Positions 17,381 to 17,983 of a stretch of 64,000 bases of DNA are shown here, one piece after another; position 1 is the stretch's first letter, and every line of letters begins with the position of its first letter. The DNA lies in the sequence record PQ666542; one strand, given 5' to 3'. The notes below the pieces were generated by a model that saw only the letters and a program-made list of their open reading frames with translations, had not been told where the DNA came from and did no database searches. Origin of the DNA: Shigella phage sb4. Both the position numbers and the translations under genes were made by a program.

Positions 17381-17983
17381 TTATAGATTAAATCCTTCAA
17401 AATCAAGAGTATAGATAGTGTATGTTGAATACTTTTTATACTCGTATCTATCCGCAATTCTAAATACACTTACAGCTGGTATCATTACTTCTTGTTCATC
17501 TGAAACTAATTCCATATAACGATAGCGATGGCTATCTGGAAACTTAAAACTTGGACTATACTCTTTACAACGTAGAGCTTTTATAGCATACTCCTGGAAA
17601 TTAAATACCATAGGAGCTTTGAACTCAAAAATAACTTGTGTGTTGTAGTCTAATCCAGAAGCAAAATGTAGAGCTATATCTTTATCATATGAAGCTGATA
17701 CTACTTTATCAAATGTAATAATATCAATTCCTTGATTTAATACCTGCTTAGTCTCAACTGGAACACCTCTCCAAAGAGGTTTATCGTTTGGTTCCAAACG
17801 AGATTTGATTATTTCATTTAACCAAGAATGATCGTCTGGTTTATTAGTAATACAATGAATTAAAAGTTCAATTTCGGATAAATTAAATCATTCAGAAAGT
17901 AATTCTTCACGAATAGAAGCACGCACCGATGCATCCATTGATTTGATTTTAAAAACTTTTAATTGTATTGTTGAATATTTCAT
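17381..17983 (-). CDS. modA: ADP-ribosyltransferase ModA; in-frame TGA at 17888-17890
   Basis: 201 codons = T4 ModA 200 aa; track shows only C-terminal 138 aa. Confidence 0.7.

Follow-up and report, generated by a model that had tools for sequence, protein, structure and literature searches.

The window, by which we mean the whole 64,000-nucleotide stretch of DNA analysed here, covers the initial 64 kb of a T4-like Tequatrovirus genome and aligns end-to-end with Shigella phage pSs-1 (NC_025829). On its minus strand, positions 17381..17983 hold modA, the gene for the ADP-ribosyltransferase of the RNA polymerase alpha subunit, assigned by alignment and by PHROG 832 and comprising 200 codons and a terminal TAA. 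The frame opens with an ATG (17983-17981), closes with the TAA (17383-17381) and counts 201 codons in all; it is broken at codon 32 by a TGA at 17888..17890 (minus strand). A sequence-only reading of this DNA had placed an in-frame TGA at this site and had taken the 201-codon frame to be modA with a single-base interruption, the open reading frame (ORF) at 17381..17797 that begins with TTG being its C-terminal part only. Both claims hold, and the TGA is the sole internal stop of the frame. As written, modA has no uninterrupted ORF of ~200 codons, and the gene is disrupted and not expressible.

We aligned the reconstructed ModA with ModA of T4, pSs-1, sb1-3, ECp13 and ESh16, which revealed 94-96% identity over 200 ungapped columns. 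Identity was 95-96% to pSs-1, ECp13 and sb3, and the alignment with T4 ModA, proposed earlier as a check, gave 94% across the 200 columns. PHROG 832 ("RNA polymerase ADP-ribosylase") matches the window protein with E=1.9e-31, and a search with Pfam models matched no family. The modA gene of pSs-1 is annotated at 17381..17983, coordinates identical to those in the window, and T4 modA has the same length of 603 nt. T4 ModA (NP_049635) and its Tequatrovirus orthologues, e.g., pSs-1 YP_009110841, also share with the window the locus, the overlap with modB, and the catalytic residues. Namely, modA sits between modB and srd, an order common to T4, ECp13, pSs-1 and sb1-3; its start codon and the modB stop overlap in an ATGA (17980-17983); and R72, S109, E163 and E165 (R-S-EXE) are invariant in the 8-sequence alignment and, in the window, come after the TGA. 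Since ModA matches are found on both sides of the stop, and the gene has the coordinates of pSs-1 modA and the length of T4 modA, the interrupted frame is the real modA frame and not a chance pair of ORFs.

Codon 32 encodes Gly in all seven aligned relatives, as GGA in each except T4, which has GGG. The ancestral codon is thus Gly, and the TGA stands in place of an invariant residue. The TGG>TGA origin suggested earlier is ruled out by these GGA and GGG codons, the change being a G>T on the coding strand at window position 17890. Where T4 and its orthologues have Gly32, the window has the TGA and seven more private substitutions in ModA, giving eight private residue changes (A5T, M6I, D10V, G32*, N102D, E112D, N156Y, G171V). 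These fall at columns that are invariant in the seven relatives, position 5 being nearly invariant. At the nucleotide level, 12 substitutions in modA are private to the window, including five transversions, four of which, the stop among them, hit the first or second base of a codon (G>T, A>T, G>T, A>T). The differences among the relatives' modA genes lie almost exclusively at the third codon position.

We searched 50,697 phage records (INPHARED) with a 41-mer that includes the modA TGA, and IMG/VR, GTDB genomes and JGI metagenomes with a 29-mer that includes it, and obtained no match. Once its TGA is replaced by GGA, the 41-mer matches 150 phage records, with an identity of at least 99% in 70 of these. 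The phage records closest to the window have ~97% identity, with none closer. Moreover, the exact products of dda.1 and modA.3, which are intact genes in the window, are absent from ~15 billion proteins, among which the ubiquitous 60-aa ModA.2 was found; this absence fits private errors in those two genes too.

Stops and frameshifts across the window

The modA stop belongs to a wider pattern that the sequence-only reading had overlooked, being one of 33 in-frame stops accompanied by six frameshifts. To count disruptions, we projected the pSs-1 gene models onto the window and compared 129 genes, or ~20,000 codons. The stops lie in 26 of these genes, at positions 1088 to 62153, and comprise 28 TAA, 5 TGA and no TAG. 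TAA stands in place of E, K, S, L, Q and Y codons, and TGA in place of G, W and R codons. Affected genes include gp52 (topoisomerase; 1088-1090), gp43, gp62 (clamp loader; two stops, 33454-33456 and 33160-33162), gp44 (clamp loader; 33815-33817), gp47 (38953-38955), gp49 (endonuclease VII), and dCTPase. Near modA, projection of the pSs-1 model places a TAA at Lys358 (AAA) of the Dda helicase (15134..15136, minus strand), created by a private A>T transversion. DNA polymerase gp43 has a TAA for Glu178 (GAA) at 32043..32045 (minus strand), created, as in modA, by a G>T change. Several of the stop-bearing genes, such as gp43 and those of the clamp loader, are essential by classical T4 genetics. 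With 33 stops in ~20,000 codons, ~0.33 stops are expected per 200 codons and the probability of at least one is ~0.28, so that a single stop in modA is no more than the window background.

The six further genes disrupted by frameshifts are srd (+1), modB (+2), mrh (+1), pSs1_0083 (+1), nrdD (-1), and pSs1_00108 (+1). The modB gene (17980..18617, minus strand), which ends in the ATGA shared with modA, is split into ORFs of 123 aa and 101 aa; at the frameshift site, ~18278-18281, the window reads GGGG and sb2, ECp13 and ESh16 read GG. In srd (16517..17264, minus strand) a homopolymer of A6 in the relatives is A7 here (~16841-16847), and in mrh (19666-20152, minus strand) C3 has become C4 at ~20045; all three of these frameshifts fall in homopolymer runs.

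Several other differences were observed. Two small genes, the homologues of pSs1_0021 and pSs1_0025, have lost their terminal stops (TAA>AAA at ~10990-10992 and TAA>CAA at 12907-12909), which extends their ORFs. At 51950-51955, a 6-bp insertion relative to pSs-1, TAAATT, lies beside an identical copy and adds two in-frame codons to the pSs1_00101 homologue; it could be natural slippage and not noise. Substitutions and small indels between the window and pSs-1 are clustered at 57970-58015 and 43640-43730, and look like natural mosaic divergence, unlike the diffuse noise layer described below. We also examined the error context around the 33 stops, in the form of neighbour-copy and homopolymer-boundary substitutions, and found no clear signal.

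The absence of TAG among the 33 new stops departs from the 17-26% expected under substitution models with real codon usage (P = 4e-5 to 2e-3). Among the new stops of public records, TAG accounts for 2 of 27 in sb1 and 0 of 6 in sb2. A window-wide depletion of the TAG trinucleotide was considered as the cause and ruled out, as the trinucleotide counts equal those of pSs-1. A G:C>T:A bias, together with GAA being far commoner than GAG (GAG and TCG are rare), accounts for the absence only in part, and zero TAG among 33 stops does not fit a simple random-error model.

A mosaic backbone and its private changes

The window and pSs-1 share 96.94% identity, with 1921 mismatches, 38 gap columns and nearly equal coordinates. 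Between 8 and 32 kb of the window, 380 of the 689 differences from pSs-1 are common to other relatives (sb2, ECp13, ESh16), which rules out that the window is pSs-1 plus added mutations. The distance from the window to its relatives is about that between the relatives themselves, 96.5-97.7% identity. Since most differences from pSs-1 are common to relatives and the distances are alike, the backbone is a natural mosaic genome.

The changes private to the window follow another pattern. We counted 110 synonymous, 112 nonsynonymous and 8 nonsense private codon changes in the window, versus 88, 20 and 0 in pSs-1, which corresponds to nonsynonymous/synonymous ratios of 1.09 and 0.23. As this ratio alone is also ~1 in ECp13 and ESh16, owing to divergent mosaic genes, noise was told apart by the per-gene and per-bin distributions. 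Private amino-acid changes are found in nearly every window gene, e.g., 8 in gp39, 7 in DexA, 5 in Dda, 6 in gp41, 10 in UvsX, and 8 in ModA, versus 0-2 for each of these six in pSs-1, sb2, ECp13 and ESh16. For gp39, DexA, gp41 and UvsX, which are very conserved, the four relatives have 0-1. In ECp13 and ESh16, private changes are concentrated in a small number of mosaic genes, among them soc and the pSs1_0047 gene.

The private substitutions have a distinct spectrum. GC>TA changes reach 0.66% per site in the window versus 0.10% in pSs-1, and AT>TA changes 0.44% versus 0.09%, so that transversions to A/T occur at 5-7 times the pSs-1 rate; private transitions show no excess over pSs-1. The private transversions are evenly spread, with 6-18 in every 2-kb bin. 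Approximately 9% of such transversions in these genes yield a stop, and the ~190 excess transversions estimated for the first 40 kb predict ~16 stops versus 19 observed. The number of stops is thus quantitatively that expected from an unselected error layer of ~0.5% per site. Noise with a measured spectrum is therefore present throughout the window.

Origin of the modA stop

The TGA in modA is very probably an error-level event and not biology; in the phage itself, codon 32 most likely specifies Gly and ModA is full-length. The noise appears to stem from sequencing, assembly or subsequent sequence handling rather than from the phage. It would form an error layer, made up mostly of transversions that write A/T and of homopolymer length errors, over a normal pSs-1-like Tequatrovirus genome. 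Because the 33 stops and six frameshifts include essential genes, the modA stop reflects the quality of the sequence and not modA itself.

Stop-creating noise similar to that of the window is found in the deposited genomes sb1 (PQ666539) and sb2 (PQ666540), which begin at the same first base as pSs-1. The first 50 kb of sb1 hold 27 in-frame stops in 98 genes, 12 of them GAA>TAA and 8 TCA>TAA, and dda (3 pieces), modB, gp41, gp43, rIIA and nrdD are annotated in pieces; sb2 has six in-frame stops, all TAA, and a split gp43. In both records (PQ666539.1 and PQ666540.1), the TAA codons that cut essential genes short resemble sequencing errors left uncorrected. The GGA>TGA change in the window modA belongs to the G:C>T:A class that is in excess in sb1 and sb2. 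Unlike these two genomes, in which modA is intact, the window also has A:T>T:A changes in strong excess and a larger number of homopolymer frameshifts, with 7 genes altered in length versus 1 in sb1. We favour a sequencing origin of the noise, given the indels in homopolymers and the sb1/sb2-like spectrum.

A computational origin, in which a real genome was mutated by simulation, is a sub-case of the error explanation and would leave the modA stop equally non-biological. It agrees with the absence of the exact dda.1 and modA.3 products from ~15 billion proteins, with the lack of any phage record closer than ~97%, and with the even density of private transversions. However, the frameshifts are concentrated in homopolymer runs of 3-7 bases, the stop spectrum (GAA>TAA, TCA>TAA, GGA>TGA) resembles that of the deposited sb1 and sb2, and a simple uniform simulator would give an excess of transitions, which is not seen here. 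We consider simulated noise unlikely, while granting it some weight.

By sequence alone, a true nonsense allele of modA is indistinguishable from an error. A real opal mutation would end translation after 31 residues, upstream of R72, S109, E163 and E165, so that the allele as written would be null: a fresh pseudogene, tolerated since the phage can do without ModA and since Arg265 of the alpha subunit is a target of Alt as well. ModA targets Arg265 of both RNA polymerase alpha subunits for ADP-ribosylation and is strongly toxic to E. coli, and a T4 modA deletion has been constructed and studied (PMC2988021). E165A ModA is inactive (PMC11404850, citing Tiemann 2004), and phages carrying the modA E165A mutation have been obtained (PMC11404850). 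Given this dispensability, a genuine nonsense allele in modA alone would be tolerated, and the intact remainder of the frame, with its conserved catalytic residues, is as expected of a very recent event. Nevertheless, a real null allele is improbable. The same private transversion class makes stops in essential genes across the window, and the background alone suffices for about a third of a stop in a gene of this length. ModA carries seven further private changes at positions (nearly) invariant in seven relatives, and the TGA allele is absent from all the phage, genome and metagenome collections searched. In addition, the private GC>TA rate is 6.6 times that of pSs-1, which means that ~85% of these changes exceed what a clean genome would show.

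We give very little credence to a T4-like phage that stays viable despite dozens of ochre and opal codons, e.g., by efficient host or phage suppression, or, more modestly, to a natural loss of ModA in which only the modA stop is real. The version in which all stops are real is very unlikely in view of the frameshifts, the replacement of nine different residues, the private missense changes scattered over the genes, and the comparable noise of sb1 and sb2.

Some phage lineages are known to have reassigned stop codons, and phage recoding, by TAG/TGA reassignment or selenocysteine insertion, likewise places in-frame stops in conserved genes. If the modA TGA were decoded, by selenocysteine, tRNA-Trp readthrough, a suppressor tRNA or a reassigned code, full-length ModA would still be made, and beyond the TGA the frame is fully intact. 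Unlike recoded phages, however, the window uses two stop codons, TAA (28) and TGA (5), in place of nine amino acids (E, K, S, L, Q, G, W, R, Y), a variety that excludes a reassigned code or programmed readthrough. None of the seven aligned relatives has a stop at codon 32, TAA still terminates the relatives' gene models within the window with only the two losses described above, and the six frameshifted genes are beyond repair by any change in decoding. A 71-nt segment spanning the TGA and the bases that follow it, examined for a SECIS-like hairpin, folds no better than shuffles (z = +0.34), and ARAGORN detected no tRNA genes in the 64-kb window. Decoding of the modA TGA is therefore extremely improbable.

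It is scarcely credible that translation restarts at the TTG at 17797, as the premise of a real stop is itself unlikely; a 138-aa ModA without its N-terminus (residues 63-200; 17381..17797, minus strand) would keep R72, S109 and E163/E165 inside an existing ORF and might still be active, but the TTG is the Leu63 codon in all relatives, lies 30 codons past the TGA, and is preceded by AATCAAATCTCG, in which no Shine-Dalgarno motif was found. Conservation of this start in relatives had been named by the sequence-only reading as the observation that would overturn it, and the relatives instead keep the upstream ATG and an open 200-codon frame. Residues 1-62 are nearly invariant among the seven aligned relatives, and ~500 Tequatrovirus records (at least 90% identity) have tblastn matches spanning the ModA query, with residues 1-200 covered among the matches listed, which suggests that the N-terminus is needed.

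With error as the preferred explanation, the phage would carry GGA at codon 32 and make a 200-aa ModA, predicted from its sequence to ADP-ribosylate Arg265 of both RNA polymerase alpha subunits; judging by the ATGA overlap, modA and modB are probably translated in a coupled manner. Other apparent pseudogenes, split genes and "recoded" stops in the window (dda, srd, modB, mrh, gp43, gp44/62 and nrdD, among others) probably share this trivial cause. A genuine modA stop would make this a natural ModA-null T4-like phage, mildly useful for the question of Alt/ModA/ModB redundancy, for which a laboratory modA deletion and an E165A mutant already exist.
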